Assembly: GCA_028821195.1 (NCBI GenBank)
Contig: JAPPHB010000118.1
Span: 19,765 to 83,764 of the forward strand
From: Gammaproteobacteria bacterium
Lineage (GTDB): Bacteria; Gemmatimonadota; Gemmatimonadetes; Longimicrobiales; Gaopeijiaceae
Length of the DNA stretch: 64,000 bases
Direction: 5' to 3'
Of this stretch, positions 2,750 to 38,103 are shown piece after piece. A program made the translations under genes and the position numbers. The notes under the pieces are model-generated. The model was not told the DNA's origin, made no database searches, and saw only the letters and a program-made list of their open reading frames with translations. How positions within the stretch are numbered: the first letter of the stretch is position 1; each line of letters begins with the position of its first letter.

Positions 2750-2765
2750 TCAGTGCGAGGTTGGA

Positions 2766-4544
2766 TCAGTGCTCCGAGGACTCCTCCATGGCCTCCCGCG
2801 CCGCGGCCTCGATCTCCCATGGGATAGCTGAGTCGCGATAGAGGGCAGCCCCGTTCGACAGGATGGGATCCTTGCCTTTCGCCGGGGCTTGGGGATGAGC
2901 CGTTGGGACCGGCACGCTCGCGAGCGAAGTCTCGGCCGGGGCGCCGGGATGAACCGTTGGGACGGGCGGCAAGCCCGCAACCAAAGTCTCAGCCGGGGCG
3001 CCGGGATGAGCCGTTGGGACCGGCGGCAAGCCCGATCTCTCGCCACCTCGAGCCGCTTTGGGCCTGCTCGGCGCGTCCACGAGCATCCTCCCCCTCGGCG
3101 TGAAGAACAGCACCGTCCCGTCACCGTTCACGGATACCTTCACCCGCCCCTCGTGAACGGCTCGATGATGCCGCCGGCAGAGCAGCAGCGTGTTCCGGAG
3201 GCTCGTTTCGCCCCCGTCGGCCCAGTGCTTCACATGATGGGCCTCGGTAAACGTGCAGCCACACCCCGGAAAGCGGCATCCCCGGTCCCGCTCCTCCAGC
3301 GCCCGACGGATATGCGGCGGAATGGTGCGCGTGCGACGCCCCACGTTCAGCATCGAGCCGTCCTTCGCGTGGACCATCGCGACCACCGCGGCATCGCACG
3401 CCATACGCCGCGACGTCTCCGCGGAAACGCGGATCCCGTCCAGATCCGAACGCCCGGGCTCGCCTTCGGCCGCGAGCGTCGCGGCGTCGCAATGAACCAT
3501 GACCTGGTAGCGCTCGGCCCGGGTGCCGGACCCGACGCGGGCTGACGTGTTCGCCGCATTCTCCGCCTTGGCTCCCGGCGTTTCCGCGGGCGCTCCCCGC
3601 AGGGCTGCATTGGACTCGGTGGTCTGAGCACCATCGAGTTCATCGAGGTCGCGACCCATCGTATTCCCATCGCCATCCGATTCACGGCGCTCGCCACCTC
3701 CGAACCCGGCGGCCAGCGCTCGTTCCGCCAGCAGCCCCACCGCATCCGCCCGGCGCTGCTTCGGCTCGAGGCGCGCATCGGCGGCCTCGCCACTGGCACC
3801 CCTTCCACTTCGCGCCCCTTCTCGGGCATCGTCCTCGGACCGAAACAGCGCATCCGACGCCGCCTCGACCGCCCGCATCAGCACCGCCCCGACCTCCGGC
3901 TCGAGCCGGCCCTTCACCACGTACATCCCGTCGCCGTCCACGAAGACCGAGAAGGTGCGGCTGCGGTGCCGGGCCTGCTCGGCGGTCAGCTCCGCGTCGC
4001 GCGACAGCTTCCTCCACATGCGCACCGTCCGCTCCAGCTTCGCCGCCGAGCCCGCGCGGGCGAACTCGAGCAGCTCCGCCTCGCGCTCGGGAGTCGCAAC
4101 CCGGGTGAGCGCCCGCACCTTGGCGTACGAGATAGTCCCGTGCTTCAGAGCGTCGGCGGTCTGCGGCAGACGCTCCAACGCGCGGGCCGTCCGCACCCGT
4201 TCGCGGGCCGTCCCCATCTTCGTGCCGGTCCTCCAGGCCAGCCATTCGGCGCAGGAGGAGTAGCCGCCGTCCTTCCACCCGCCCCGCCGGTCGAACTCGG
4301 CGATCAGAGTCATCATGCGCGCCTCGGCGGAGTTGATGCGGGCCGCCAGTTCCGCGATGCGCTCGCCCAGCTTGCGGAGTTCGTCGTCGTCACCGTCGCC
4401 CGCGGCGCGACTCGGGGCGTGCTCGGGATCGGAGGGCGCGGGGTTGGCGTCGAGTCGCACACCCGTCGGTTCCCGCACCATCGCGGGCCACGAGGAGGGT
4501 TTCCGGCGAGTGTTGTAGAGAATGTCCGCAGATGGGATCAACAT
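2766..4544 (-). CDS. DUF222 + HNH endonuclease family protein (REP13E12-like), copy A
   Basis: DUF222-like N-region (AELAARINSAEARMMTLIAEFDRRGGW, TISYAKVRALTRV). C-terminal HNH motif CRFPGCGC..EAHHVKHWADGGETSLRNTLLLCRRHHRAVHEG. The ORF is open to 4598, but ATG 4544 behind GAGAGGA aligns with the start of the paralog at 37769/37766. Confidence 0.85.
   Translation of the reverse strand: MLIPSADILYNTRRKPSSWPAMVREPTGVRLDANPAPSDPEHAPSRAAGDGDDDELRKLGERIAELAARINSAEARMMTLIAEFDRRGGWKDGGYSSCAEWLAWRTGTKMGTARERVRTARALERLPQTADALKHGTISYAKVRALTRVATPEREAELLEFARAGSAAKLERTVRMWRKLSRDAELTAEQARHRSRTFSVFVDGDGMYVVKGRLEPEVGAVLMRAVEAASDALFRSEDDAREGARSGRGASGEAADARLEPKQRRADAVGLLAERALAAGFGGGERRESDGDGNTMGRDLDELDGAQTTESNAALRGAPAETPGAKAENAANTSARVGSGTRAERYQVMVHCDAATLAAEGEPGRSDLDGIRVSAETSRRMACDAAVVAMVHAKDGSMLNVGRRTRTIPPHIRRALEERDRGCRFPGCGCTFTEAHHVKHWADGGETSLRNTLLLCRRHHRAVHEGRVKVSVNGDGTVLFFTPRGRMLVDAPSRPKAARGGERSGLPPVPTAHPGAPAETLVAGLPPVPTVHPGAPAETSLASVPVPTAHPQAPAKGKDPILSNGAALYRDSAIPWEIEAAAREAMEESSEH
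2884..3040. repeat. In-frame tandem repeat (units of 54, 57 and about 40 nt) inside HNH copy A
   Basis: Units start at 2884, 2938 and 2995 (ggggcgccgggatga(a/g)ccgttgggac...). They encode GLPPVPT(A/V)HPGAPAET three times. Copy B carries a single unit (DLPPVPSVRPGAPSTRE). Confidence 0.85.
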
Positions 4545-4555
4545 TCCTCTCAACA

Positions 4556-4592
4556 TGAGATCGTACAATGACTTACATACAAATATAACGCC
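4556..4592. promoter_or_regulatory. Conserved AT-rich island upstream of HNH copy A (candidate divergent promoter region)
   Basis: This is the only AT-rich stretch in an otherwise GC-rich 600 bp: tcgtacaatgacttacatacaaatataacgcc. It is conserved at 37781-37816 in locus B. -10-like hexamers occur on both strands (TACGAT toward HNH; TCGTAC-N17-TATAAC toward the motif array). Confidence 0.35.
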
Positions 4593-4753
4593 ACTCAAAT
4601 CGGTCTCTCAGGATGCCCAGTAGTGGCCGAAACGGGGTTGGGAGACCTTCGGAGGAGGCACCCGTCTGCGAATGCCGCCGGCGAGCCCGCCAGCGCCTCT
4701 GGCGGGGTGGCAGGCGCGGGGTCTCGGACTCCGTCGAATCGCGGGCTCCGAAT

Positions 4754-5004
4754 CCGTCAATGGCAGAATGGGACACGCACATGTGAATTCGGGACGCGGC
4801 GGGGGCGGGCAGCTGACCTTTGGCGAACAACCAGCCAGTGGCGCGCGCGACCGCCCGTCAATGGCAGAATCGGCCACCCGAATGTGAATTCGGGACGCGG
4901 GCGCGCGGGTGTCGCCGACCCCTCGACCGGGACTACTGCCCAATACCGACGCGCTCGCCCGTCAATGGCAGAATGGGACGGCCGAATGTGACTTCAGGCC
5001 GTCC
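4754..5004. repeat. Array of three 45-bp bipartite motif copies with unrelated 56- and 59-nt spacers
   Basis: Copies at 4754-4798, 4855-4899 and 4959-5003. Consensus C(C/T)GTCAATGGCAGAAYGGGAC-N6-ATGTGAATTCGGG. The periods of 101 and 104 bp are not multiples of 3, and the motif falls in different reading frames. Confidence 0.9.
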
Positions 5005-5087
5005 TGGTTCCGGCCAGCGGGGAGATGCGAGATCCCGGCGTGTCACCGCGCACCTCCACCCCGTCCTGGCTGGCGACGCGAACCCGG

Positions 5088-5115
5088 TTGACGAGTTGCT
5101 CACAATCAGTACCGT
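5088..5115 (+). promoter_or_regulatory. Candidate sigma70-like promoter of the ba3 oxidase operon
   Basis: TTGACG (5088-5093), 16-nt spacer, TACCGT (5110-5115), about 55 nt upstream of the ATG at 5169. The -10 is weak. Inference only. Confidence 0.2.
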
Positions 5116-5168
5116 AGGGGAGCAGGCCATTCACGCTTCCTGACCCGTCTGCGGGACCCGGAGGATCC

Positions 5169-5375
5169 ATGAGCGACGATCAACTCAATCATCCGGCCGA
5201 CCGACCCGATCCCACGGCCGACCGACCCGATCCCACGGCCGAAGAGTCCGTCGATGTCGGGGGTCACCCCAGAGGGACGCTCGCCATCGTCGGCATCTAC
5301 GGGCTGCTGTTCGTCGTCGGCTGGCTGTTCATCTACTTCGGGGTGTTCCTGCCCCGGGGCCCCCTGACCCAGTGA
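5169..5375 (+). CDS. cbaD: ba3-type cytochrome c oxidase subunit IIa (single-TM peptide) with an extended N-terminus
   Basis: The C-terminal TM segment PRGTLAIVGIYGLLFVVGWLFIYFGVFLPRG resembles the Thermus subunit IIa pattern (KGALAV...F.ARG). It sits directly upstream of subunit II. Confidence 0.7.
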   Translation: MSDDQLNHPADRPDPTADRPDPTAEESVDVGGHPRGTLAIVGIYGLLFVVGWLFIYFGVFLPRGPLTQ

Positions 5376-6073: not shown

Positions 6074-7707
6074 TCGGGGGCGTGAGGGACGGGGGCAGGA
6101 AGCTCGCGCTCGCGAACCTGTGGGTCGCCATCGGCGCCTTCGCGGTGGCGTCCGGGATGGCGTTCATGCAGTCGCTGTCGCGAGCCAACCTCGATCTGCC
6201 GTTCCGGAGCGCGAGCGTCTACTACATGTCGGTGACGGCGCACGGCGTCCTGATGGCGATCGTGTTCACCACGTTCTTCATCATGGGCTTCGGCTACGTG
6301 GTGGCCGAACGCGCGCTGGGCCGGCCCATCGTATTGAAGAAGCTCGCCTGGGCTTCCTGGTGGGTGGCGCTGATCGGCACCGCGATGGCCGTCTGGGCGA
6401 TCCTGTGGGGTGAGGCGTCGGTGCTCTACACCTTCTATCCTCCGCTGATGGCCCATCCCCTGTTCTACATCGGGGCCGCGCTCGTGATCGTCGGCTCGTG
6501 GGGCTGGTGCTGGGTGATGGCGCGCACCTGGATGATCTGGAAGAGGGAGAATCCGGGGGTGCGCACGCCGCTCCCCGTGCACGGCATGCTCGCGACGATC
6601 ATCGTCTGGGTGCTGGCCACCATCGGCGTGGCGGCCGAGGTGCTGATCCTGCTGATTCCGTGGTCGCTGGGCATCGTCGACACCATCGACCCGATGCTGG
6701 CGCGCATCCTTTTCTGGTGGTTCGGCCACCCGCTGGTGTACTTCTGGCTGCTGCCGGCGTACGTCATCTGGTACACCATCACGCCGAGGATCGCGGGCGG
6801 GAAACTGTTCAGCGATCCGCTGGCCCGGCTGGCGTTCGTGCTGTTCATCCTGCTGTCCACGCCGGTGGGCTTTCACCATCAGCTCGTCGACCCCGGCGTG
6901 TCGGCCGGCTGGAAGCTCTTCCACACGTTCAACACGCAGCTGATCCTCTTCCCCAGCTTCGTCACCGCCTTCACCGTCATCGCGTCGTTCGAGGTCGCGG
7001 GCCGCATGAAGGGCGCCAGGGGCCTGCTGAACTGGCTTGAGGAGCTTCCCTGGGGCGATCCCGCGTTCTCAAGCGTCGCGCTGGCCATGCTCATGTTCGC
7101 CGTCGGCGGATTCGGCGGAGCCATCAACGCCGCCTACGGGATGAACGCCATGGTGCACAACACCGCGTGGATCCAGGGACACTTCCACCTGACGGTGGGG
7201 ACCGCGGTCGCGCTGACCTTCATGGGGACGTCGTACTACCTCCTGCCCCGGCTGACGGGCCGCGAACTCGAGCTGTCGCTGCTGGCGCGCATCCAGCCCT
7301 ACCTGTGGTTCGGCGGAATGCTGCTCTTCTCCATCGCCAACCACCTGACGGGGCTCGCCGGCATGCCGCGGCGCGTCTACGACGCCAGCTACGGAGGCAG
7401 CGAGATCGCGCAGCAGTGGGTGGCCGGCACCGGCATCTCGGCGGTCGGCGGCATCCTGCTGTTCATCAGCGCCGCATGCTACGTGGCCGTGATGCTCGGC
7501 ACCGGACTGGCGGGAAGGAGAATCGACCCCGAGCCCATCGAGTTCGCCGAGCCGCTCCAGGGCGAAAACGGCAAGGCCCCCATCCTCGACCGCTTCGGCC
7601 TGTGGTTCATCGTCGCCGCCATCCTCGTCGCCGCGGCCTACGCCTGGCCCATCGCCGAGCACCTGTCGATGGAGCGCTTCGGCTCGCCGGGGTTCCAGCC
7701 GTTCTAG
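6070..7707 (+). CDS. cbaA: ba3-type cytochrome c oxidase subunit I
   Basis: Polytopic heme-copper oxidase pattern (WWFGHPLVYFWLLPAY, HHQ, HNTAWIQGHFHLTV). ATG 6070 forms an ATGA overlap with the subunit II stop. Confidence 0.9.
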   Translation: MIGGVRDGGRKLALANLWVAIGAFAVASGMAFMQSLSRANLDLPFRSASVYYMSVTAHGVLMAIVFTTFFIMGFGYVVAERALGRPIVLKKLAWASWWVALIGTAMAVWAILWGEASVLYTFYPPLMAHPLFYIGAALVIVGSWGWCWVMARTWMIWKRENPGVRTPLPVHGMLATIIVWVLATIGVAAEVLILLIPWSLGIVDTIDPMLARILFWWFGHPLVYFWLLPAYVIWYTITPRIAGGKLFSDPLARLAFVLFILLSTPVGFHHQLVDPGVSAGWKLFHTFNTQLILFPSFVTAFTVIASFEVAGRMKGARGLLNWLEELPWGDPAFSSVALAMLMFAVGGFGGAINAAYGMNAMVHNTAWIQGHFHLTVGTAVALTFMGTSYYLLPRLTGRELELSLLARIQPYLWFGGMLLFSIANHLTGLAGMPRRVYDASYGGSEIAQQWVAGTGISAVGGILLFISAACYVAVMLGTGLAGRRIDPEPIEFAEPLQGENGKAPILDRFGLWFIVAAILVAAAYAWPIAEHLSMERFGSPGFQPF

Positions 7708-7728: not shown

Positions 7729-8487
7729 TCAAACCTCGATCACCATCCCGTCTTCCGCAGCCTCGAAGCCCTCGATGGGCAGCGCGGCGAGCACGTCGTC
7801 GCCCATGTGGGTGAGCACGATGCGTTCGCAGTCGATGTCCGAGCGCCGAGCCCGCAGCGTCTCGATGTCGAGGTGGACAGGGGCGCGCGGCCGCAGACTC
7901 CAGGCCTCGCAGATGAAGATATCGGCCCCGGCGGCAGCATCGATGAGGTTGTCATCCCACGCCGTGTCGCCCGAGAAGACGATGATTCTGCCCTCCACCT
8001 CGATGCGGAGCGCGTGTGGATTGGTCGCGGGGACGTGGGTCACGGGATAGCCGGTCGCGGTCAGCCCGCCGGGCCAGGCGTGCGCCAGGGTCGTGGGGCG
8101 GAACGATGCGTATTCGCGAATTGTGAGATTGAAGCGGTCCGGGCGCGGCGACGCGCTCGGGAAGAGGTGGCTGGCCAGCCGCGGCAGGCGGTCGGCGGTG
8201 CCCTCGGGGCCGAGGACCCCAAGGGGTCGCCCCACCCCGGCGGCCGCCCGCTGGAGCGCCAGCCAGGGGATGCCGGCGTAGTGGTCGCCGTGCATGTGGG
8301 TCACGAGCACGGTGTCGATGGCGTTCGGATCCACGCCGAACTTTCTGAGCCCCACCAGCGCCGAGGCGCCGCAGTCGATCAGAAAGCGATGGGTGTCGGA
8401 CTCGACACAGAAACAGGTCTGCAGCCGTCCGCCGCTGCCGAAGGCGTCGCCGCTGCCGATGAAGCGGATGCGAATGGGAGCTACCAC
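7729..8487 (-). CDS. MBL-fold metallo-hydrolase (RNase Z / PhnP-like)
   Basis: The HMHGDHYAG motif follows IDCGAS. A GTG at 8487 preceded by GGAGGA gives VVAPIRIRFIGSGDAFGSGGR. It overlaps the addA stop by 7 nt. Confidence 0.75.
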   Translation of the reverse strand: MVAPIRIRFIGSGDAFGSGGRLQTCFCVESDTHRFLIDCGASALVGLRKFGVDPNAIDTVLVTHMHGDHYAGIPWLALQRAAAGVGRPLGVLGPEGTADRLPRLASHLFPSASPRPDRFNLTIREYASFRPTTLAHAWPGGLTATGYPVTHVPATNPHALRIEVEGRIIVFSGDTAWDDNLIDAAAGADIFICEAWSLRPRAPVHLDIETLRARRSDIDCERIVLTHMGDDVLAALPIEGFEAAEDGMVIEV

Positions 8488-11400
8488 CGTTCCTCCTCCT
8501 CCATGGTCGTGAACAGGAGCGCCTTCTCCTTGACACGCTGGCCGGTGACTTCTTCCCAGCACTCCGCGTACAGGTCCACCTGACGCCGATAGGCGCGACG
8601 GCGGCGAGGGAAGTCGGGATCGTCGCCAACGTCGGTCTTGTAGTCCACGATCACCCAGCCGTCGGCTTCGCGGAAGGCCAGGTCGATCACGCCTTCCACG
8701 AGTCGGGGGATGTCGCCGTTCTCCGCCTGGCGCTCAAGCGCGAAGGGCGCTTCGGGCTGGCGCATGTCGGCGCCCTCGGCACGGCCCCAGAGTTCGGATG
8801 CGCGCACGCGCCCCACCAGCGACATGAGTTCATCCAGTTCGGCGGGCGCGCCGCGTTCGTCCAGCGGACGCTCGTGCTCCACCAGAAGCGCCCGTGCCAC
8901 GAACTCGAGGGCCTCGCCTTCGACTCCCTGGGCCGCGGCTGCAAGAGTACCGTGAACAGCGCTGCCCCACGCGTAGCCGCGAAGGGTCGTGCGATCCGGC
9001 ACGGTGGGAGTTGCCGGGTCATCGGACTGCGCCGGCTCTTCCCCGTGATCCTCGCCCTGGATCCCGGCTGCGTCCTGCATCGCAGCCTCGCCCGCTTCCG
9101 CTGCATCGGCCTTCGCCAGCTGGGTGATGGACGTGAACTCGTACGACGGCCGGGCCCCCTCGGCCATCCTGCCCTCGGCTGCCTCCGTTTCCGCCAGCAG
9201 ATCCTCGGCGCTTCGGGCCATGCGCTCCCGCGACTGCGGCACGTCCGCCGCCAGGTGCAGCGTTTCGGCGTTCCGGTCCAGCCACCCGCCGAAGACGCCC
9301 CAGCAGGACTTGCCGCCCTTGCGGGCGACGACCAGTTCCTCGCGCGCGCGCGTGCATGCTACGTACAGGATGCGCTGTTCCTCGGCCTCCAGGAACCGCA
9401 CCTCCTCCTGCGCTAGTTCGGCCCATTCGAGCGGTTGCGCGAGCGTCCAGGATCTGTAGGGGCCCGCGGGCGTGGTGACGGCGGCAAACGCTTCGGCCCC
9501 GCCGCTCGCGTTGCGGCGGGTGTGGGCATCCAGCCGTCGCGTGTGGGAGACGGTCTGTACGGGGTTGGCGAGCACGACGACGGTGGCCTGGAGGCCCTTG
9601 GCCTTGTGCAGGTTCATGACTCGCACGGCATCGCCGGGACCCGGATCGAAGGGTGCCTCCGCGTCCTCCCAGGCCAGCGCCGCCTCCAGCGCTTCGACCG
9701 CTCCCGCGAGCGATGCGTTGCCCCGCAGGGCCTCCGCCCGCACCGAGTCCAGCGCGTAGGCCAGGATTCCCGCCCGCAGCGTGCCGAGCGTACTGCTCGC
9801 GACGAAGGGCATCAGCCCCAGCCGGTCCACCAGGCGACCGATGACGATGTCGGCGGGCTCCCGCCGGCTTTCCTTCCACCACTCGTGCAGCACGGCCAGC
9901 GCCTTCGTCACCTCGGTCCGGGGCGTGTCCCCGCCGGCGCCATCCTCCTCCCGGTCCCGGTTCCGGGGCCTGGAGGTGAACTCGAATCGTCCTCCGGCCA
10001 GGGCATGCTGCGCCAGTTGCTCGTGGTCGAGGCCGAAAAAGAGCCCGGTGAGCACCGCCACGACGTTCACGGGGTTCCCCGGGTCGATGAGGGTCTCGAG
10101 CAGAAGGGCGAGCTCGCGCAGCTCCTCTTCAGGCCCGGCCTGTGCCCCGGAAACCTCGATGGTCACGTTGCGTTCCTCGAGCGCGCGGGCGTAGAGGTCC
10201 AGGTGGGCCTTCTTCCGGGTCAGCACCAGGAAGTCGCCTGCCGTGCGCTCGCCGCTGTCGAGCCGGGCCCGGATCCAGCTTGCAAGCATCGCCGCTTCGA
10301 GCCGTGCCGCGTCCGCATTGCGCCGTGCCTTGGGCACTTGGTAGTGGAACACCCCCTCCGGCCCGTTGGGCGCTCTCGGGTAGGGCACCATGGGCGCGAA
10401 GCACGCCTGGCGGTCGGTTTCCTCCCGCGGAAAGCGGACGGGATCGTCGAAGACCTCGTTGACCAGGTCGGCAACGGTCTGGCGCGAGCGGAAGTTGGTG
10501 ATGAGGTGGAGGACCGCGCCGAACTCCCTGAAGCGCCCGCGAACCTGGTTGTAGACGGCGATGTCCGCGCGCCGGAAGCGATAGATGCTCTGCTTCGGAT
10601 CCCCGACGACGAAGAGCGCCCCGGGACGCGGAACCACGGTGTGCCAGTCCGCCGGCCGGGTGGCGTCGTCGGCCCGAGATCCGGCATCCGCCGGCCGTGG
10701 CTCGGGCTCGGATGCGAGCAGGAAGAGCAGCTCCGCCTGTATGGGATCGGTGTCCTGGAACTCGTCGATGAGGACGTAGCGGTAGCGTTCTCCCAGATCC
10801 CGGCGCACCTCGGGATGCTCGCGAAGCAACTGCGCCGTCAGCATCAGGAGGTCGTGGAAGCTGAGCAGCCCGATGCGCAGACGCTCCTCTGCAAACTCGA
10901 GAGCCGCCCGCCGCACCAGCCTGATCGCCATCGCATAACGATGCGCCAGCCAGCGGTCGAGGTGGTTGCGGATCGGGCCGTCTTCGTTTCCCAGGACAGC
11001 GAGTTCGTCCCTCAGCCGCCTGACCTCGGCCGAGCCTGCCGGGGTCGGCTGTGGCCAGCGGTTGAGCGTGAAGCCCTTTCCCGAGGACATCTTCTCGGCG
11101 GCATCGAAGAGCGCCGCAAGATCGCCCCATTCGCGGAAACGGCGCGTGTAGCGGAGAGAGCGCACCATCTGCTGGGTCGCATCCCATCCGCGTTCAGGCT
11201 CATCATCCGGAATCAGGGCCAGTGCCCGGTCGAGCAGCTTCTCCAGCACACGGCGCACCCCGCGCGCCTCCTCGGGGCCCGGCGCGGCGATGGGGTCGGC
11301 GGGATACTCGACATCGAGGTTCTCGACCATCTGGTCGAATGCCTTGCGCAACTGGTCCACGCGTAGCCCCGCGCCCGCCAGCTCCTCTACCAGGGGATCC

Positions 11401-11909
11401 GAGTCGGAGATGATGCGCTCGACGAAGCTCGTCCAGAAGCGTTCCTGCAGGAGCTGGGTTTCGGCCTCCTGCGCCTCCTGAAACTCCGGGTCGAGGCCGG
11501 CCTCGATGGGGCGCTCGCGGAGCAGACGCGCGCAGAAGGCGTGGATGGTGCCCAGAAACGCGCGGTCGATGCCGTCGATTGCATCGCGGAGCCGGGCCAC
11601 CCTCTCGCCTTCGGCCGGATCGTGGCGGGCCTCGCGGTAGCACCGCTCGAGCGCCACCTGGAATCGTTCCCGCAGCTCCGCCGCCGCCTTGCGCGTGAAG
11701 GTGACGGCTGCGATCCGGGCCACTTCCGCTTCCCCGCTGTCGACCAGCGCCACCATCCGGTCTACCAGGAGCGTGGTCTTGCCGGAGCCGGCGCCGGCTT
11801 CGACCAGGAAGCTGGTGCGGAGTTCGGTGCGAACGCGCCGGCGCTGATCTTCGTCGACGGGTGGGGGTCGCCGGTCCGGGTCCGCGCGGAGGGCTTTCGG
11901 CGCGCTCAC
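8481..11909 (-). CDS. addA: UvrD/Rep-type helicase-nuclease, AddA-like
   Basis: Walker A VEAGAGSGKTT, DEFQDT, UvrD helicase motifs and a C-terminal PD-(D/E)xK nuclease (VIDLAFRE..WVIVDYKT). GTG 11909 overlaps the addB stop (GTGA). Confidence 0.8.
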   Translation of the reverse strand: MSAPKALRADPDRRPPPVDEDQRRRVRTELRTSFLVEAGAGSGKTTLLVDRMVALVDSGEAEVARIAAVTFTRKAAAELRERFQVALERCYREARHDPAEGERVARLRDAIDGIDRAFLGTIHAFCARLLRERPIEAGLDPEFQEAQEAETQLLQERFWTSFVERIISDSDPLVEELAGAGLRVDQLRKAFDQMVENLDVEYPADPIAAPGPEEARGVRRVLEKLLDRALALIPDDEPERGWDATQQMVRSLRYTRRFREWGDLAALFDAAEKMSSGKGFTLNRWPQPTPAGSAEVRRLRDELAVLGNEDGPIRNHLDRWLAHRYAMAIRLVRRAALEFAEERLRIGLLSFHDLLMLTAQLLREHPEVRRDLGERYRYVLIDEFQDTDPIQAELLFLLASEPEPRPADAGSRADDATRPADWHTVVPRPGALFVVGDPKQSIYRFRRADIAVYNQVRGRFREFGAVLHLITNFRSRQTVADLVNEVFDDPVRFPREETDRQACFAPMVPYPRAPNGPEGVFHYQVPKARRNADAARLEAAMLASWIRARLDSGERTAGDFLVLTRKKAHLDLYARALEERNVTIEVSGAQAGPEEELRELALLLETLIDPGNPVNVVAVLTGLFFGLDHEQLAQHALAGGRFEFTSRPRNRDREEDGAGGDTPRTEVTKALAVLHEWWKESRREPADIVIGRLVDRLGLMPFVASSTLGTLRAGILAYALDSVRAEALRGNASLAGAVEALEAALAWEDAEAPFDPGPGDAVRVMNLHKAKGLQATVVVLANPVQTVSHTRRLDAHTRRNASGGAEAFAAVTTPAGPYRSWTLAQPLEWAELAQEEVRFLEAEEQRILYVACTRAREELVVARKGGKSCWGVFGGWLDRNAETLHLAADVPQSRERMARSAEDLLAETEAAEGRMAEGARPSYEFTSITQLAKADAAEAGEAAMQDAAGIQGEDHGEEPAQSDDPATPTVPDRTTLRGYAWGSAVHGTLAAAAQGVEGEALEFVARALLVEHERPLDERGAPAELDELMSLVGRVRASELWGRAEGADMRQPEAPFALERQAENGDIPRLVEGVIDLAFREADGWVIVDYKTDVGDDPDFPRRRRAYRRQVDLYAECWEEVTGQRVKEKALLFTTMEEEERW

Positions 11910-14900
11910 GATGACGCGTTTCCGGGCTTGGCCCGGGCCTCGAGCGCGTGCAGGAACCCGGCCCCCTCGTGGTCCCAGTTGCGGATCGCGCGCAGTCCGG
12001 CGAGTTCGGGGGCGTCGCCGATGCGCTCCTTCACCCACTCCGCCAGCCGGGAAGTGGCGCCGAAGTCGGTCTCGCGCACACGGCAGATCGCCTGGTAGTT
12101 GCAGAAGCGGCAGTCGCCGGAGTCGTCGGTGGGGAGGAAATGTCCGCCGGCGACCCGGTCGAGGAGGCGGGCGACGAGTTCGGGCCCGGCGATCAGGTCG
12201 TCGGCGGAGTAGGCGCGGGTCTGGTTCTCGCCCTTGCGCGTGGGGAAGTGGTATTCCATGGCAAGGGTCCGTGCGTCGTGCAGCCGGCCCGCGACCGCCG
12301 CGTAGATGACATGCTGCAGCCGCCTCCCGCCGTCCCAGATGCCCCTCTTGCTGGCGAAACTGAAAGTGCCGCCGGTCTTGTAGTCCACCACCCGCAACCC
12401 GCGCTTCAGCCTGTCGATGCGGTCGATGGCGCCGCGCACCATCACGTCGCCCGAGGGCGTCGGGAAGGGAAGCGGGTCCTCACCCCTGAGCCCGAAAGCA
12501 CGCTCGGTGGCGATCCAGGCGGGCGGACTCTGCCGGATCATGTCGACGAACGATTCCGCGTCGCCCGCCAGTGCTTCCAGTTCGCGCGCGCGCACGGCAT
12601 CGCTTGGAGCCGGCACCTCGCGTACCGCGAGGCCGACTTCCTGGTCCAGGATCGCCGCGACCAGGCTCTCGAACGCCGGTTCGTGGTAGCCGATGTCCTC
12701 GTTGCGGGCCTCGGTCAGCGCGCGCTCGTACACGCGGTGCAGGATGCTCCCGCGCCCGAGGGCGTCGAGCCAGCCCTCGGGGTCGTAGGCGGGATCGTCC
12801 GGTGGCCAGACCCCCGCCACGTAGCCGTAGAAGTAGCGCTTCGCGCAGGCTCCCAGCGCGGCCAGCGCGCTGGCGGACACCGCGAGTTCGGGATTCCTGC
12901 GCGGGTCGAGTTCCGGGCGCGGGGTGGTCTGGCCGTGGAAGGCGGTCACCACATCGCCGGTCAGGGCGTCGCGCGCCCGCAATCCGGCCCCGATGAGAGG
13001 GAAGGCCTCCCGAACCATCTCCTCGCCGTCCAGAAGGCGGCCATTGCTTTCGAGCGACCCCAGCCAGACATCGGTGGCGTCGAGGCGCACCGCGCGCCGG
13101 GGGACGAGACCGGCGCGCTCGCGCACGTGCGCCTCCAGGTCCTCGAAGGTGGCCGCGGGATCGTTGCGCATGAGCCGGAAGGCCTGCAGCAGTTCCGCGG
13201 AGGGCGAGACCGCGCGCGCCTCCGCCGGATCCCAGGCGGCGTAGCTCAGGCAGACGGAACCACGCAGGCGGGCGAGAAGCGCTGCCAGCCGGAAGCGTCG
13301 CTCCCGGACGCGGTCGGCGGAGAGCGGCAGGTCGGAGGCGGCCAGTTGCACGCGGTCGCGGTCGAGCAGGTAGGGATCCTGGGTGGCCGAGCCGCCGAGG
13401 CGGTGGGCGTCGAGGCCCACCACGAAGGTGGCGCGCCGGCCCGTCCGGCCACCGTTGCCGATGTCGGTCAGGTAGAGCGCCCCACCCGCCGAACTCCACG
13501 GCGCGCTCCCCTCCGCGCGCGGGGCGGGGACCGGGAACGCGATGTGGCGGCGCACGATGGCGGCGGCGGCGCGGTAGTCGGTCTTGCGGACGAGGGCCGT
13601 CTCGATGCGCTCGAGGGTGTGGGTCATGCGCTCGAGCGCGGTGTCGTCGACGGAGGTCCCCGGGGATGTGCGGGCCAGGAAGCGGCGGAGTCCGCGGGCC
13701 ACCTGCGACGGCGACACCGGAGCGCCTCCCGTCCCGGAGTCCATGGAGACCGGGGGCGTGGCGGCAAGCGCGGGAGCCAGCAGGCCGCGCAATCCCCGGA
13801 GCTCGCGGCGGGTGCGCTGCTTGCGGCGTTCCAGTTGCTCGTCCGATTCGTACTTCCCGGCGCGGTAGTCGTCGACCTCCGCCAGGGCCCGCTCGATGGC
13901 CGGGAGGTAGCGGTCGCGTCCCCACCCGATGCGCAGCGAACGCAGTCGGCGGGCCAGCGTGGCTCCGCGGATCCATTCGTTGGGCCGGGGCGCGGTGAGG
14001 TCGCTCGCGTAGAGCAGCGTGCGCACCACCCCGGCATCGAAGCCGCCCTCGATCCAGCGGAAGTACGCCGCCGCGACCCGGCCGGGCCGGGTGCGCTCCA
14101 CCGGCAGTCCCGCGGCGAAGGTCACCGGCACGCCCGTCCGCTCCGCGAGCGCGTGCAGCGCGGAGCCGTACACGGCCGGATCCGTGGCCACGATCTCGAC
14201 CTCGTCCCACCCCAGACCGCGCTCGCGCGCCCGCCGCATCACCTCCCGCAGCTCGGCCTCGACGCTGTTGGCCACGAAGATGTCCAGGGTGTTGCCCGGG
14301 CTTGGCGAGTCGGGGGGCGCATCGCCTTCGATGGTGCTTGGGGCTCCCTCCACGTCGTGCAGGTGGGACAGGCGGCCCGCTCCCTCCCGGGCCGCGCGCC
14401 ACACCACGGAACCGGGGACCGCCAGCCCCCGCACCGGATCCGCCTCCAGCACCTCCGCGCCCCGTCGCTGGAGCGCGCCCAGGAAGCGGCCGGCCAGCCC
14501 GCGGCGTTCGATTCCGGGCGCGAGGTAGACGTGCTGTCCCGCGAGCGACCCCGTCCCGCCAGCTTCAGCGCCCGCCCGGTCGGCCTCCTCGGCCGACCGC
14601 AGCACCCAGGCCGCGGCCTGGTAGACGCCCGCGGTATCCGTCAGGTCGCGTTGCCGCAACCGCCCCTCGTACGCGGCCAGGACGCGGGACAGGATGCGTG
14701 CCTTGGCGGGATCGGCCAGCGGCGCGCCGGCGAGCTTCCGGGACCGCACTCCGGCCAGCCTCAGGGTCGTGACCGCGCGCGCGAGCGCCCGCCGCATCCC
14801 CGCCCTCCGGGCCAGCCCGGCGTGTGCGTCCTTCTCGCCTCCGAGCAGCACCTCGTCGATGGCCTCGTCGAGCAGCCCCTCCTCGTCGAATGGGTCCGTG

Positions 14901-36239: not shown

Positions 36240-37769
36240 TCATCCGAGAGACTCTTCGACGGCTTCCCGCGCTGCGGCTTCGATCTCCCAGGGGATATCG
36301 GCGTCGCGATAGAGGGCAGCGCCATTAGGGAGCTTGGTAAGTTCACGCGTCGACGGGGCCCCGGGACGGACCGATGGGACAGGCGGCAGGTCTGGGTTCG
36401 AGCGCTGCTCCGCTGAATCCGCCCACCCGCGCCGCTTCCGCGCTTCGGCCCGCTCGACCCGCTTCGGCGCATCCACCAGCATTCTTCCCTTCGGCGTGAA
36501 GAACAGCACCGTCCCGTCACCGTTTACGGATACCTTGATCCGTCCCTCGTGAACGGCGCGGTGATGCCGCCGACAGAGCAGCAGCGTGTTTCGGAGGCTC
36601 GTCTCACCCCCGTCCGCCCAGTGCTTCACGTGATGCGCCTCGGTGAACCTGCACCCACACCCGGGAAAGCGGCATCCACGGTCGCGTTCCTCCAGCGCCC
36701 GGCGGATGTGCGGAGGAATCGTGCGCGTCCGGCGACCGACGTTCAGCAGCGAGCCGTCCTTCGCGTGGACCATCGCGACGACGGCGGCATCGCACGCCAT
36801 GCGGCGCGACGTTTCCGCGGAGACGCGGATCCCGTCCAGATCCGAGCGTCCCGTCTCGCCTTCGGCCGCAAGCGTTGCCGCATCGCAATGGACCATGACT
36901 TGGTAGCGCTCGGCGCGGGTGCCGGACTCGACTTTGCGCTCCGAGTCCGAACCAGCCGTCGCTCCATCGTCTGGCGTCGCGCTCGACTCGCCGCCCCCGA
37001 ACCCCGCCGCCAGCGCCCGCTCCGCAAGCAGCCCCACGGCGTCCGCCCGGCGCTGTTTCGGCTTCGGCCGGGGATCATCGGGACCAGGCTCGCGGGTCGC
37101 CGCGCCCCCTCCCCTGCTTCCGGCATCCCGTCCGCCATGGGCGGCCCCGCCCTCGCCCCGGAACAGCGCATCCGACGCCGCCTCCACCGCCCGCATCAGC
37201 ACCGCTCCGACCTCCGGCTCGAGCCGTCCCTTCACCACGTACATCCCGTCGCCGTCCACGAACACCGAGAACGCGCGGCTGCGGTGCCGCGCCTGTTCGG
37301 CGGTCAACTCCTCATCGCGCGACAGCTTCTTCCACATGCGCACCATCTGCTCCAGGTTCGCCGCCGACCCGGCGCGTGCGAACTCGAGCAACTCTGTCTC
37401 GCTCTCCGGAGTAGCCACGCGCGTGAGCGCCCGCACCTTGGCGTAGGAGATGGTCCCGTCCCTAAGGGCGTCGGCGGTCTGCGGCAGGTTCTCCAGCGCG
37501 CGGGCGGCGCGGACCCGTTCGCGGGCCGGCCCGATCGTGATGCCGATCTTCCAGGCCAGCCACTCGGCGCAGGAGCCGAACCCGTCCTTCCAGCCGCCCC
37601 GGCGATCGAAATCGGTGATGAGGGCCATCATCCGGGCTTCTGCGGCGTTGATGCCCTCGGCCAGCTCCGCGATGCGCTCGCCGATCTGGCGGAGTTCATC
37701 GTCGTCGTGGGGCCGGGGAAGAGGCTTCTTGTGAGTGTCGTAGAGAAGGTCCCGGGATGCGATCATCAT
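36240..37769 (-). CDS. DUF222 + HNH endonuclease family protein (REP13E12-like), copy B
   Basis: Same architecture and motifs as copy A (CRFPGCGCRFTEAHHVKHWADGGETSLRNTLLLCRRHHRAVHEG). ATG ATG at 37769/37766 behind GGGAGGA. The ORF is open to 37835. Confidence 0.85.
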   Translation of the reverse strand: MMIASRDLLYDTHKKPLPRPHDDDELRQIGERIAELAEGINAAEARMMALITDFDRRGGWKDGFGSCAEWLAWKIGITIGPARERVRAARALENLPQTADALRDGTISYAKVRALTRVATPESETELLEFARAGSAANLEQMVRMWKKLSRDEELTAEQARHRSRAFSVFVDGDGMYVVKGRLEPEVGAVLMRAVEAASDALFRGEGGAAHGGRDAGSRGGGAATREPGPDDPRPKPKQRRADAVGLLAERALAAGFGGGESSATPDDGATAGSDSERKVESGTRAERYQVMVHCDAATLAAEGETGRSDLDGIRVSAETSRRMACDAAVVAMVHAKDGSLLNVGRRTRTIPPHIRRALEERDRGCRFPGCGCRFTEAHHVKHWADGGETSLRNTLLLCRRHHRAVHEGRIKVSVNGDGTVLFFTPKGRMLVDAPKRVERAEARKRRGWADSAEQRSNPDLPPVPSVRPGAPSTRELTKLPNGAALYRDADIPWEIEAAAREAVEESLG

Positions 37770-37780
37770 TCCTCCCAACG

Positions 37781-37816
37781 ATATATTGTACATTGAGTTA
37801 CATAAAATATAACGGC
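37781..37816. promoter_or_regulatory. Conserved AT-rich island upstream of HNH copy B
   Basis: atatattgtacattgagttacataaaatataacggc. TACAAT reads toward HNH. TTGTAC (37786-37791)-N16-TATAAC (37808-37813) reads toward the motif array. Confidence 0.35.
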
Positions 37817-37977: not shown

Positions 37978-38103
37978 CTGTCAATGGCAGAACGGGACGC
38001 GCCGATGTGAATTCGAGCGAGACTTGGCGCGGGCCCGCGGGAGCCGTACGTCGAGCTCCTGTCAATGGCGAGACTGGCCCTGCCGATGTGAATTCGGGCG
38101 ACG
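37978..38103. repeat. Array of two copies of the same 45-bp bipartite motif with a 36-nt unrelated spacer
   Basis: Copies at 37978-38022 and 38059-38103 (ctgtcaatggcagaacgggac gcgccg atgtgaattcgag...; ctgtcaatggcgagactggcc ctgccg atgtgaattcggg...). Same orientation relative to the HNH gene as in locus A. Confidence 0.9.

Follow-up and report, generated by a model that had tools for sequence, protein, structure and literature searches.

An iterated, asymmetric DNA motif at a fixed distance upstream of DUF222-HNH nuclease genes in Longimicrobiales: candidate sites for the encoded nuclease

What do conserved repeats with dissimilar spacers do when they lie beside a bacterial nuclease gene? This question was raised by a 64,000-nucleotide stretch of contig JAPPHB010000118.1 (assembly GCA_028821195.1, deposited as Gammaproteobacteria bacterium and placed by GTDB in the Longimicrobiales). 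In this stretch, referred to here as the window, two genes encoding DUF222-HNH nucleases (genes A and B) are each preceded by copies of a 45-bp motif. An original prediction, made from the letters of this DNA, had explained the array of gene A in three possible ways: as repeated recognition sites or operators of the DUF222-HNH protein, as an array of processed or guide-like non-coding RNA, or as recombination sites.

Of these, recognition or operator sites are favored by the exclusivity of the motif, by its behavior as primary sequence and by the ParB/Noc-like fold predicted for the protein. On this view, the 45-bp units are the heads, kept by selection, of a degenerate tandem repeat with an 80-104 bp unit, and this repeat forms the promoter-distal edge of a nuclease cassette. 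The heads would serve as double-stranded DNA sites for the cassette's own nuclease, in autoregulation or cis-tethering, a reading that is held tentatively and that we rate somewhat short of an even chance.

The motif array and its nuclease gene

Three copies of the motif precede gene A where they had originally been placed, with periods of 101 and 104 nt, in an array that spans positions 4754 to ~5069 (Table 1). Scanning the window with the 16-mer CCGTCAATGGCAGAAT, with up to three mismatches allowed, gave six matches against 0.32 expected, a number that was reached in none of 100 shuffled sequences. True copies outside the array were found only upstream of the second DUF222-HNH gene, at 37978 and 38059, as had been anticipated. 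Tandem Repeats Finder reported nothing over 4500-5200, because the units are too degenerate. The unit type of motif copy 3 was found again in four other loci (L040, L065, L037 and L038). At the distal end, part of 5040-5069 could be flank, as weak similarity to a cassette-free syntenic genome may begin at 5060-5069, leaving the boundary uncertain by ~20 nt.

Each head is asymmetric, without dyad symmetry, and is made up of two diverged direct repeats ~21 bp apart (..ATGGCAGAATGGGAC and ..ATGTGAATTCGGGAC). This confirms the pair of direct GAAT..GGGAC half-sites described earlier, which are ~21 nt apart, and in distant relatives box 2 visibly duplicates the 3' half of box 1. The invariant blocks of the head are GTCAATGGC, GGGAC and ATGTGAATTCGGG. 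Listed in order, the conserved blocks are GTCAATGGC, GGGAC, ATGTGA and TTCGGG, with centers ~11-12 bp apart when counted by position. This spacing would set them in consecutive major grooves, all on the same side of the helix.

Motif and gene were also found together in other genomes. A scan of one genome per species (185,579 species) with the pattern GTCAATGGC-N16-ATGTGAMTTC returned 71 loci, 57 of which lie in metagenome-assembled genomes (MAGs) of Longimicrobiales/Gemmatimonadota or in Gammaproteobacteria-labelled sponge bins whose flanks are near-identical, with proteins 97-100% identical to those of the window. The remaining 14 were isolated matches in unrelated taxa without a nearby nuclease gene; about eight chance matches are expected, by our estimate from the degeneracy of the pattern and the size of the database. 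Among the 57 loci, of which up to seven occur in one genome, the nearest copy is separated from a DUF222-HNH gene by 160-200 bp, and the orientation is always the same, unless the locus is truncated or the element has decayed. A profile search yielded 139 copies in arrays of 1 to 5, with periods mostly of 80-83 nt and also of 99-104 and 111-145 nt, and all copies lie on one side of the gene in one orientation.

The motif is equally confined when related genomes are searched more loosely. Box 1, with up to three mismatches, occurred 111 times in 484 kb of related-genome DNA, and 111 of these 111 occurrences were inside arrays. The expectation that the motif would accompany DUF222-HNH genes in relatives was therefore borne out at orthologous and paralogous loci alike, and the motif is not scattered through unrelated intergenic regions. 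A dispersed repeat of the repetitive extragenic palindromic (REP), bacterial interspersed mosaic element (BIME) or miniature inverted-repeat transposable element (MITE) type was rejected on the same count, and also because the unit is asymmetric and can form a hairpin of at least 5 bp in only 26 of 79 units. Three loci (L033, L050 and L051) carry motif copies without an intact gene and are regarded as decayed cassettes because degenerate leader or gene fragments are kept. A reading of such solo arrays as virgin target sites (L033 and L051) was rejected, since the degenerate leader is still present.

Comparison of adjacent units indicated where selection acts within the repeat. Their 40-nt heads are 83% identical and their tails 56%, against a random baseline of 49%, and heads exceeded tails in 57 of 60 pairs, which means that selection holds the heads and the tails drift. 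The spacers, originally described as unrelated and unique, are only weakly alike within the window (z = 1.6), but they did not prove to be unique: they are tails that belong to families common to several loci and genomes, orthologous and paralogous. The entire 81-nt unit is visibly repeated in L035, L057 and L063, among others. Proximal copies are highest in information content and distal copies are more degenerate, with box 1 staying high even distally. Close strains with an identical cox small subunit differ by a permuted order of units, a 32-nt internal duplication or an extra unit; the array evolves by unequal exchange.

These data bear on whether the array has a function at all. It could be a functionless, slippage-prone repeat that hitch-hikes beside a functional promoter-proximal site, which would agree with a copy number of 1 to 5, with the mostly single-copy state of relatives at 48-62% protein identity and with the progressive degeneration of distal copies. 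Conserved heads next to near-random tails in the same units, and the high information of distal box 1, would be unexpected for neutral duplicates, and the proposal still concedes a functional proximal site. We consider it quite improbable. Under the favored reading, the extra distal copies would add cooperative or buffering sites that turn over rapidly by unequal recombination.

Three further repeat arrangements, made from the same core, were noted at related loci: box-1-only mini-repeats with a period of ~27 nt in L070 (~6400-6530), a 40-nt tandem of GATTTGGGAC..GGAxGGGAC in at least three copies upstream in L113, and repeated CCGATGAYGGGA units downstream of the array in L021.

Both nuclease genes pass the Pfam family test (DUF222 at 98 bits with a cut-off of 24.4, HNH at 25 bits with a cut-off of 21.4), and the matches of gene A to DUF222 (6.9e-28) and HNH (1.6e-05) are both above gathering scores. 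The start of gene A was set where paralogues become alignable as protein, and a 1-nt indel upstream of this start breaks the frame. Since both genes lie on the minus strand, the arrays are upstream in gene orientation. The array of gene A had been described as directly upstream; the upstream position stands, whereas directness does not, as the nearest copy is 210 nt from the start codon with a conserved leader between. At gene B, too, ~210 nt of conserved non-coding leader separate the array from the start codon.

Conservation within this interval points to a promoter. The -10 hexamer, which belongs to an AT-rich block beside each start codon, is invariant in 40 of 41 motif-bearing loci while neighboring bases vary (the exception, L017, has AATGTA), and its plus-strand reading is without the final T that is conserved in -10 boxes. 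The inverted repeat that follows it has arms that co-vary between clades (TGTAC/GTACA, ATGAC/GTCAT and GTGAC/GTCAC), both window copies being imperfect or degenerate. A common variant of this repeat, TGCAC/GTACA, permits a G-U wobble on the gene strand only, which fits transcription of the gene strand from the TATATT promoter; the repeat is probably a hairpin of the 5' untranslated region or an operator. The conservation of the -10 box on the gene strand, combined with the evidence from the inverted repeat, places the leader and array upstream of the nuclease promoter.

Across all HNH-linked loci, leaders are 72-87% identical. Box 1 begins 173-175 nt from the -10 hexamer in 49 of 49 loci, exactly 174 in 41 and 174 at both window loci, and between clades the intervening sequence is kept only as islands despite this constant length. 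From the placement of the proximal site at 174±1 bp upstream of the -10 box, we infer that the sites would assemble a defined nucleoprotein complex in the upstream part of the cassette itself. In both clades the near-palindrome GTC(C/T)CGGAC, at 4721-4729 in the window, is conserved as an island 27-35 nt before box 1 (L077, L087, L088, L101, L133, L148 and others). This island may be an extra inverted half-site, as it sets the reverse complement of GGGAC beside GGAC.

A fixed distance upstream of a promoter, together with leader islands that resemble a multi-protein regulatory region, would also suit a host transcription factor or nucleoid protein that binds the heads and controls these genes, with the nuclease not being the reader. 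The variants of the motif follow lineage, a pattern as compatible with a host factor as with the nuclease. Targets elsewhere would be expected of such a factor, yet no box-1-like site was found outside the arrays in the 484 kb searched, the genome-wide matches were located only at cassettes or arose by chance in unrelated taxa, and the cassette encodes a predicted DNA-binding domain of its own. A host reader is accordingly rated as improbable.

Traces of the motif extend beyond close relatives. In a protein-based metagenome scan of relatives at 37-78% protein identity, the exact motif accompanied only proteins at least ~69% identical, and at 48-62% identity box 1 (GTCAATGGCAGAATGGGAC) appeared as GTCCATGKCTGGATGGGAC. 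The sequence (AAATCC)GTCCATG[GT]CTGGATGGGAC was carried in the same orientation, mostly as a single box 1, by 21 loci; in 19 of these the proteins share 48-62% identity with those of the window. TGGGAC was five times commoner in the motif orientation in these loci (47 vs 10). In some of these loci (L116 and L132), box 1 is followed 6-7 nt later by another, diverged copy of its 3' half, and box 2 is therefore a diverged direct repeat of box 1; L113 and L117 have tandem versions of their own.

RNA, coding and CRISPR readings of the array

The suggestion of a processed or guide-like RNA array fared poorly: no Rfam family matched, neither strand showed conserved structure, and the array precedes the promoter indicated by conservation. 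In the window, tRNA was the sole Rfam match at the gathering threshold, and with E-values up to 10 only chance-level matches appeared. Alifold consensus folding, applied on both strands to close leaders (46) and diverse ones (33), returned energies of ~0 to -7 kcal/mol and no consensus structure. Single units folded no differently from shuffled ones (z ~0), and the leader z-scores were -0.69 (plus strand) and -0.39 (minus strand). In the nearly gap-free alignment, an exhaustive search for pairing columns detected no plus-strand helix longer than 4 bp, and the minus strand yielded a single marginal 5-bp run; support was chance-like throughout. The hexamer had originally been thought to change together with its flanks, with hairpins proposed for copies 2 and 3, and this was not upheld as a general feature: a stem of at least 5 bp is possible in just 26 of 79 units, and since the 3' arm of the box-2 hairpin does not vary, there is no co-variation between it and the variable hexamer.

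Some observations nevertheless speak for a non-coding RNA, transcribed divergently from the plus strand or as a long minus-strand 5' leader, that includes leader and array and binds or guides the nuclease. Amongst these are the strict 174±1 nt from the -10 box to box 1, a plus-strand -35-like TGACA or TTGTAC 16-17 nt from TATAAN, the slightly negative mean plus-strand folding score and the precedent of IscB for RNAs associated with HNH nucleases. Against them stand the negative family and structure searches, units no more stable than shuffled ones, the fact that the invariant hexamer is a proper -10 box on the gene strand only, and a protein without RuvC or other known RNA-guided architecture. 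An RNA of this kind is therefore very doubtful. The specific case of an IscB/HEARO omega-RNA was rejected, as there was no HEARO match, no co-varying structure and no split RuvC with an inserted HNH. The NCBIfam score for IscB was 15.5 bits, through the HNH motif only, against a cut-off of 175, and Pfam found DUF222 and HNH alone, with no RuvC.

Coding explanations were also considered. That the array is non-coding, as had been argued from its changing frame, is supported by the lack of a consistently open frame and of 3-nt substitution periodicity in leader and array, where uncompensated ±1 indels also occur. A 57-codon plus-strand open reading frame (ORF; 4613-4786) that ends in box 2 was rejected because eight clade-I and several clade-II sequences carry in-frame stops. 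A mini-ORF present in every copy, ATG-GCA-GAA-TGG-GAC-N6-ATG-TGA, was rejected because its stop is not conserved in the distant clade. Two further identifications by known binding motif failed as well: on inspection, the GG/GC spacing of box 1 does not fit a sigma-54 promoter, and box 2 matches a DnaA box at just 6 of 9 positions.

The likeness to a CRISPR-like array with acquired spacers lies in the dimensions, as 45-bp repeats and 56-59-nt spacers are within CRISPR size ranges, and in the adjacent nuclease gene. The repeats are imperfect, with heads 83% identical on average around a free hexamer and degenerate distal copies, and they show no RNA structure. The tails recur at other loci and in other genomes, and PADLOC was negative, with no cas gene or defence family found. 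The proposed check of the spacers against phage and plasmid collections came out negative: neither array nor spacers had any match in phage, plasmid and viral collections. The CRISPR reading was rejected, and its probability can be regarded as negligible.

The predicted reader of the heads

If the heads act as double-stranded DNA, their likeliest reader would be the DUF222-HNH protein, the sole product of the cassette, in which a predicted ParB/Noc-like N-terminus is joined to a C-terminal HNH nuclease. The catalytic and zinc-ligand residues of the HNH domain are invariant in 37 homologues. For the N-terminus, a sub-threshold Pfam match to HTH_ParB (helix-turn-helix, HTH) covers residues 77-145 with E = 0.096, and nothing of use came from searching the PDB by sequence. 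AlphaFold modelling of the full-length protein was of poor quality (predicted local distance difference test, pLDDT, 45), and the three best PDB fold matches of that model were nevertheless Noc and ParB.

Residues 20-215 of the gene B product were then modelled from a 62-sequence alignment that included Polyangia relatives at 34-40% identity. This N-terminal AlphaFold model reached a pLDDT of 85, with one long helix ahead of the HTH domain. Its 19 best PDB matches were all DNA-binding domains of Noc, ParB or Spo0J, with probabilities of 0.84-0.99, E-values of 0.05-0.4 and root-mean-square deviations of ~3-10 Å (~3-4 Å for most ParB/Noc) over ~105 residues. The model thus makes it likely that the DUF222 N-terminus has a ParB/Noc-type HTH fold. 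ParBc and ParA families were undetected in the nuclease protein and in the scanned neighbor genes.

Which protein binds the sites, and what the binding does, we infer from these predictions and from the confinement of the motif to the cassette. The complex would control expression of the nuclease (autoregulation), tether the nuclease in cis, or both. Several points weigh against this reading. The fold E-values are modest, and the ParB assignment rests on the consistency of the matches, no single one being significant. ParB-type HTH dimers normally bind palindromes, and the sites here are asymmetric direct repeats. The promoter is 174 bp away, which is far for a simple repressor. A length held strictly at 174 nt is seen more typically in RNAs or coding units than in regulatory DNA, although testing for an RNA and for coding gave negative results. 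In Polyangia, the gaps upstream of DUF222-HNH genes (39% identical) measure just 30-160 bp and hold no array, so the array is not general to the family; a comparable array was not found in actinobacterial relatives either, and the array is lineage-specific. Finally, motif variants follow protein clades and host phylogeny equally well, and co-evolution with the nuclease is thus not separable from co-evolution with a host factor.

The cassette, its surroundings and related systems

The features described above (Table 1) form a cassette of ~2.3 kb: a DUF222-HNH gene, a leader with a constant length of ~170 bp and the array, with the DUF222-HNH gene as the sole cassette gene. The window neighbors are a TonB-dependent receptor (TBDR) gene, cox genes and ppk.

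Table 1. Coordinates in the window of the motif copies, nuclease genes, promoter elements and leader.
Feature	Position	Strand or location	Details
Motif copy 1 (promoter-proximal)	4754-4798		Box 1 4756-4774 (GTCAATGGCAGAATGGGAC); variable hexamer 4775-4780; box 2 4781-4795 (ATGTGAATTCGGGAC)
Motif copy 2	4855-4899		Box 1 4857-4875; box 2 4882-4896
Motif copy 3	4959-5003		Box 1 4961-4979; box 2 variant 4986-5000 (ATGTGACTTCAGGCC)
Possible degenerate fourth partial copy	5040-5069	~Distal cassette edge	GTGTCA, then box-2-like tail and type-b tail
Motif copy B1	37978-38020		Box 1 37980-37998; box 2 38005-38019
Motif copy B2	38059-38103		Box 1 38061-38079; box 2 38086-38100
DUF222-HNH nuclease gene A	2766-4544	Minus	592 aa; ATG 4544..4542, stop 2768..2766
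DUF222-HNH nuclease gene B	36240-37769	Minus	509 aa; Pfam DUF222 8.4e-28, HNH 2e-05
-10 box, gene A promoter	4587..4582	Minus	TATATT (AATATA on plus); from promoter scan
-10 box, gene B	37811..37806	Minus	TATATT; 174 nt from box 1 of copy B1
-35-like hexamer (weak assignment)	4606-4611	Minus	CTGAGA; 18 nt from -10 box; from promoter scan; in conserved island CCTCTCAGG
Imperfect inverted repeat	4562-4581	Minus; between -10 box and ribosome-binding site	Consensus TGTAC-N10-GTACA; counterpart 37786-37805
Conserved fixed-length non-coding leader	4588-4755	Between promoter and box 1	Holds island GTCTCGGAC at 4721-4729

Comparison with a genome that lacks the cassette helped to define its limits. 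In Longimicrobiales OZ244873 (L156 3254-4486, syntenic with 2750-5085 of the window), the TBDR-cox slot holds an AAA_14/DUF4143 ATPase gene and no box-like sequence, and homology to the window stops at the TBDR stop codon and restarts near GGTTGAC at ~5085. Gene, leader and array are all missing there, which indicates that the three come and go as one unit of ~2.3 kb, and the intergenic slot between TBDR and cox seems to receive accessory genes repeatedly. Past the nuclease stop codon, neither conserved sequence nor motif copies in direct or inverted orientation were found, and a target-site duplication was likewise not seen.

At the TBDR-cox and ppk loci, the structured domains of orthologous cassettes have 90-95% nucleotide identity, the same as their flanks, and the cassettes can thus be regarded as long-resident, vertically inherited copies. 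Fast turnover of the nuclease gene at a fixed locus, suggested by flank proteins 93-99% identical against 72-75% for the nuclease, was rejected on this nucleotide identity of the domains; the low overall protein identity is due to indel-rich linkers. These low-complexity linkers (2900-3100, 3500-3700 and 4400-4500) show 17-60% nucleotide identity between orthologues, compared with 90-95% elsewhere, flanks included.

The organization of the cassette raises a further explanation, in which the nuclease-bound array is the cis-acting end of a selfish cassette and the HNH domain nicks or cuts there for gene conversion, homing between paralogous loci or copy-out. Modular homing endonucleases pair a nuclease domain with an HTH anchor, which counts in its favor. 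The array also lies at the outer edge of the conserved cassette and is gained or lost together with the gene, units are permuted, duplicated or lost between strains with near-identical flanks and between orthologous loci, and DUF222-HNH loci of the REP13E12 type are among the strongest gene-conversion hotspots of M. tuberculosis (PMC13061034). The vertical inheritance of orthologous cassettes as conserved as their flanks gives no sign of recent turnover, however, and the layout is one-sided, with neither a motif copy or conserved sequence past the stop codon nor a target-site duplication. Additionally, tandem repeats are unstable anyway and do not need the help of a nuclease, and a recombination site does not require a fixed promoter distance. 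Altogether, we judge this explanation unlikely, though it is the leading alternative to the favored reading. A slightly smaller probability is given to its boldest form, an undescribed kind of selfish cassette in which a fusion nuclease of ParB-type HTH and HNH docks on its own edge sites, nicks, and drives conversion or copying between paralogues. If true, such docking and nicking would explain how recombination hotspots, so far without an explanation, arise at DUF222-HNH (REP13E12-type) loci.

Several observations concern the surroundings of the cassette. A perfect 21-nt tandem duplication at 5194-5242 (2.3 copies of CGGCCGACCGACCCGATCCCA) lies in a 68-codon ORF before the cox genes and gives an in-frame repeat of seven residues; L159 apparently has a single copy. 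Downstream of the cox genes, on the minus strand, are a gene of the metallo-beta-lactamase fold (~7729-8562), whose orthologues match Pfam Anti-Pycsar_Apyc1, and after it a UvrD-helicase/PD-(D/E)XK gene (8481-12038) for a protein of 1,130-1,185 aa; the Apyc1/UvrD annotation was taken from strain-level loci L153 and L154. The cassette is shared by sponge MAGs deposited as 'Gammaproteobacteria bacterium' (VXMG01, VXNP01 and VYDD01; L005, L012, L023, L038, L040, L064, L066, L068, L070 and L071). Flanking proteins (ppk, cox and the gene left of nuclease gene B) in L037, L040, L064 and L066 are 92-100% identical to those of the window, the corresponding values for Longimicrobiales MAGs being 93-96%, and judging by these sequences the Gammaproteobacteria label of the sponge MAGs is probably wrong.

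Amongst known systems, the arrangement is functionally best compared with sopC/SopB of plasmid F, and also with parS/ParB, NBS/Noc and OB/KorB, where the gene for a ParB-type HTH protein, as predicted here, lies beside iterated sites. The heads are likened to sopC, which consists of tandem 43-bp units, each with a conserved core, that work as double-stranded DNA and vary in copy number. Unlike these systems, the partner domain here is an HNH nuclease, and there is no ParB CTPase/spreading domain and no adjacent ParA gene. In contrast to the ~16-bp palindromes of ParB, the sites are asymmetric direct repeats that lie upstream at a fixed promoter distance, on the chromosome and at several loci per genome.

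The homing endonuclease I-TevI is modular and autorepresses through an operator in its own promoter, and a selfish nuclease with a separate HTH module that recognizes its own upstream site is what is proposed here. I-TevI has a single operator that overlaps its promoter, whereas here the nearest site is 174 bp upstream and iterated, and nuclease class and DNA-binding fold differ. Direct-repeat protein sites with fixed spacing at the edge of a mobile cassette, engaged in a defined complex as proposed here, are also found at the ends of Tn7 and Mu and in the arm-type sites of lambda attP. In the present case, the sites lie at one edge only, with no inverted partner end, no transposase or integrase and no sign of recent movement. 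IscB/HEARO omega-RNA loci and CRISPR share with this locus conserved non-coding repeat-and-spacer DNA beside an HNH nuclease gene, and differ from it in what the locus lacks, namely an RNA family match or structure, RuvC and foreign spacers, and in its array being upstream of the inferred promoter.

The closest relationship by protein family is with REP13E12/DUF222-HNH proteins of Mycobacterium and other Actinomycetota, which have the same Pfam domains and are also multi-copy per genome, although the window proteins are 37-40% identical to actinobacterial ones in partial alignments covering 24-52% of the query. REP13E12-type loci are recombination-prone and have no assigned function (PMC13061034). 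An upstream site array or cognate site was unreported in the papers mentioning DUF222 that were searched.

With at least 7,900 homologues at E ≤ 1e-5, DUF222-HNH is a very large, multi-copy family of unknown function, and its loci in M. tuberculosis are major gene-conversion hotspots. The present analysis removes a tempting misreading, since the repeats and spacers by this nuclease gene are neither a CRISPR-like nor a guide-RNA array. One clade of the family gains a candidate cognate DNA site, a cassette architecture of gene, promoter, 174-bp leader and one to five sites, and a probable ParB/Noc-type domain.

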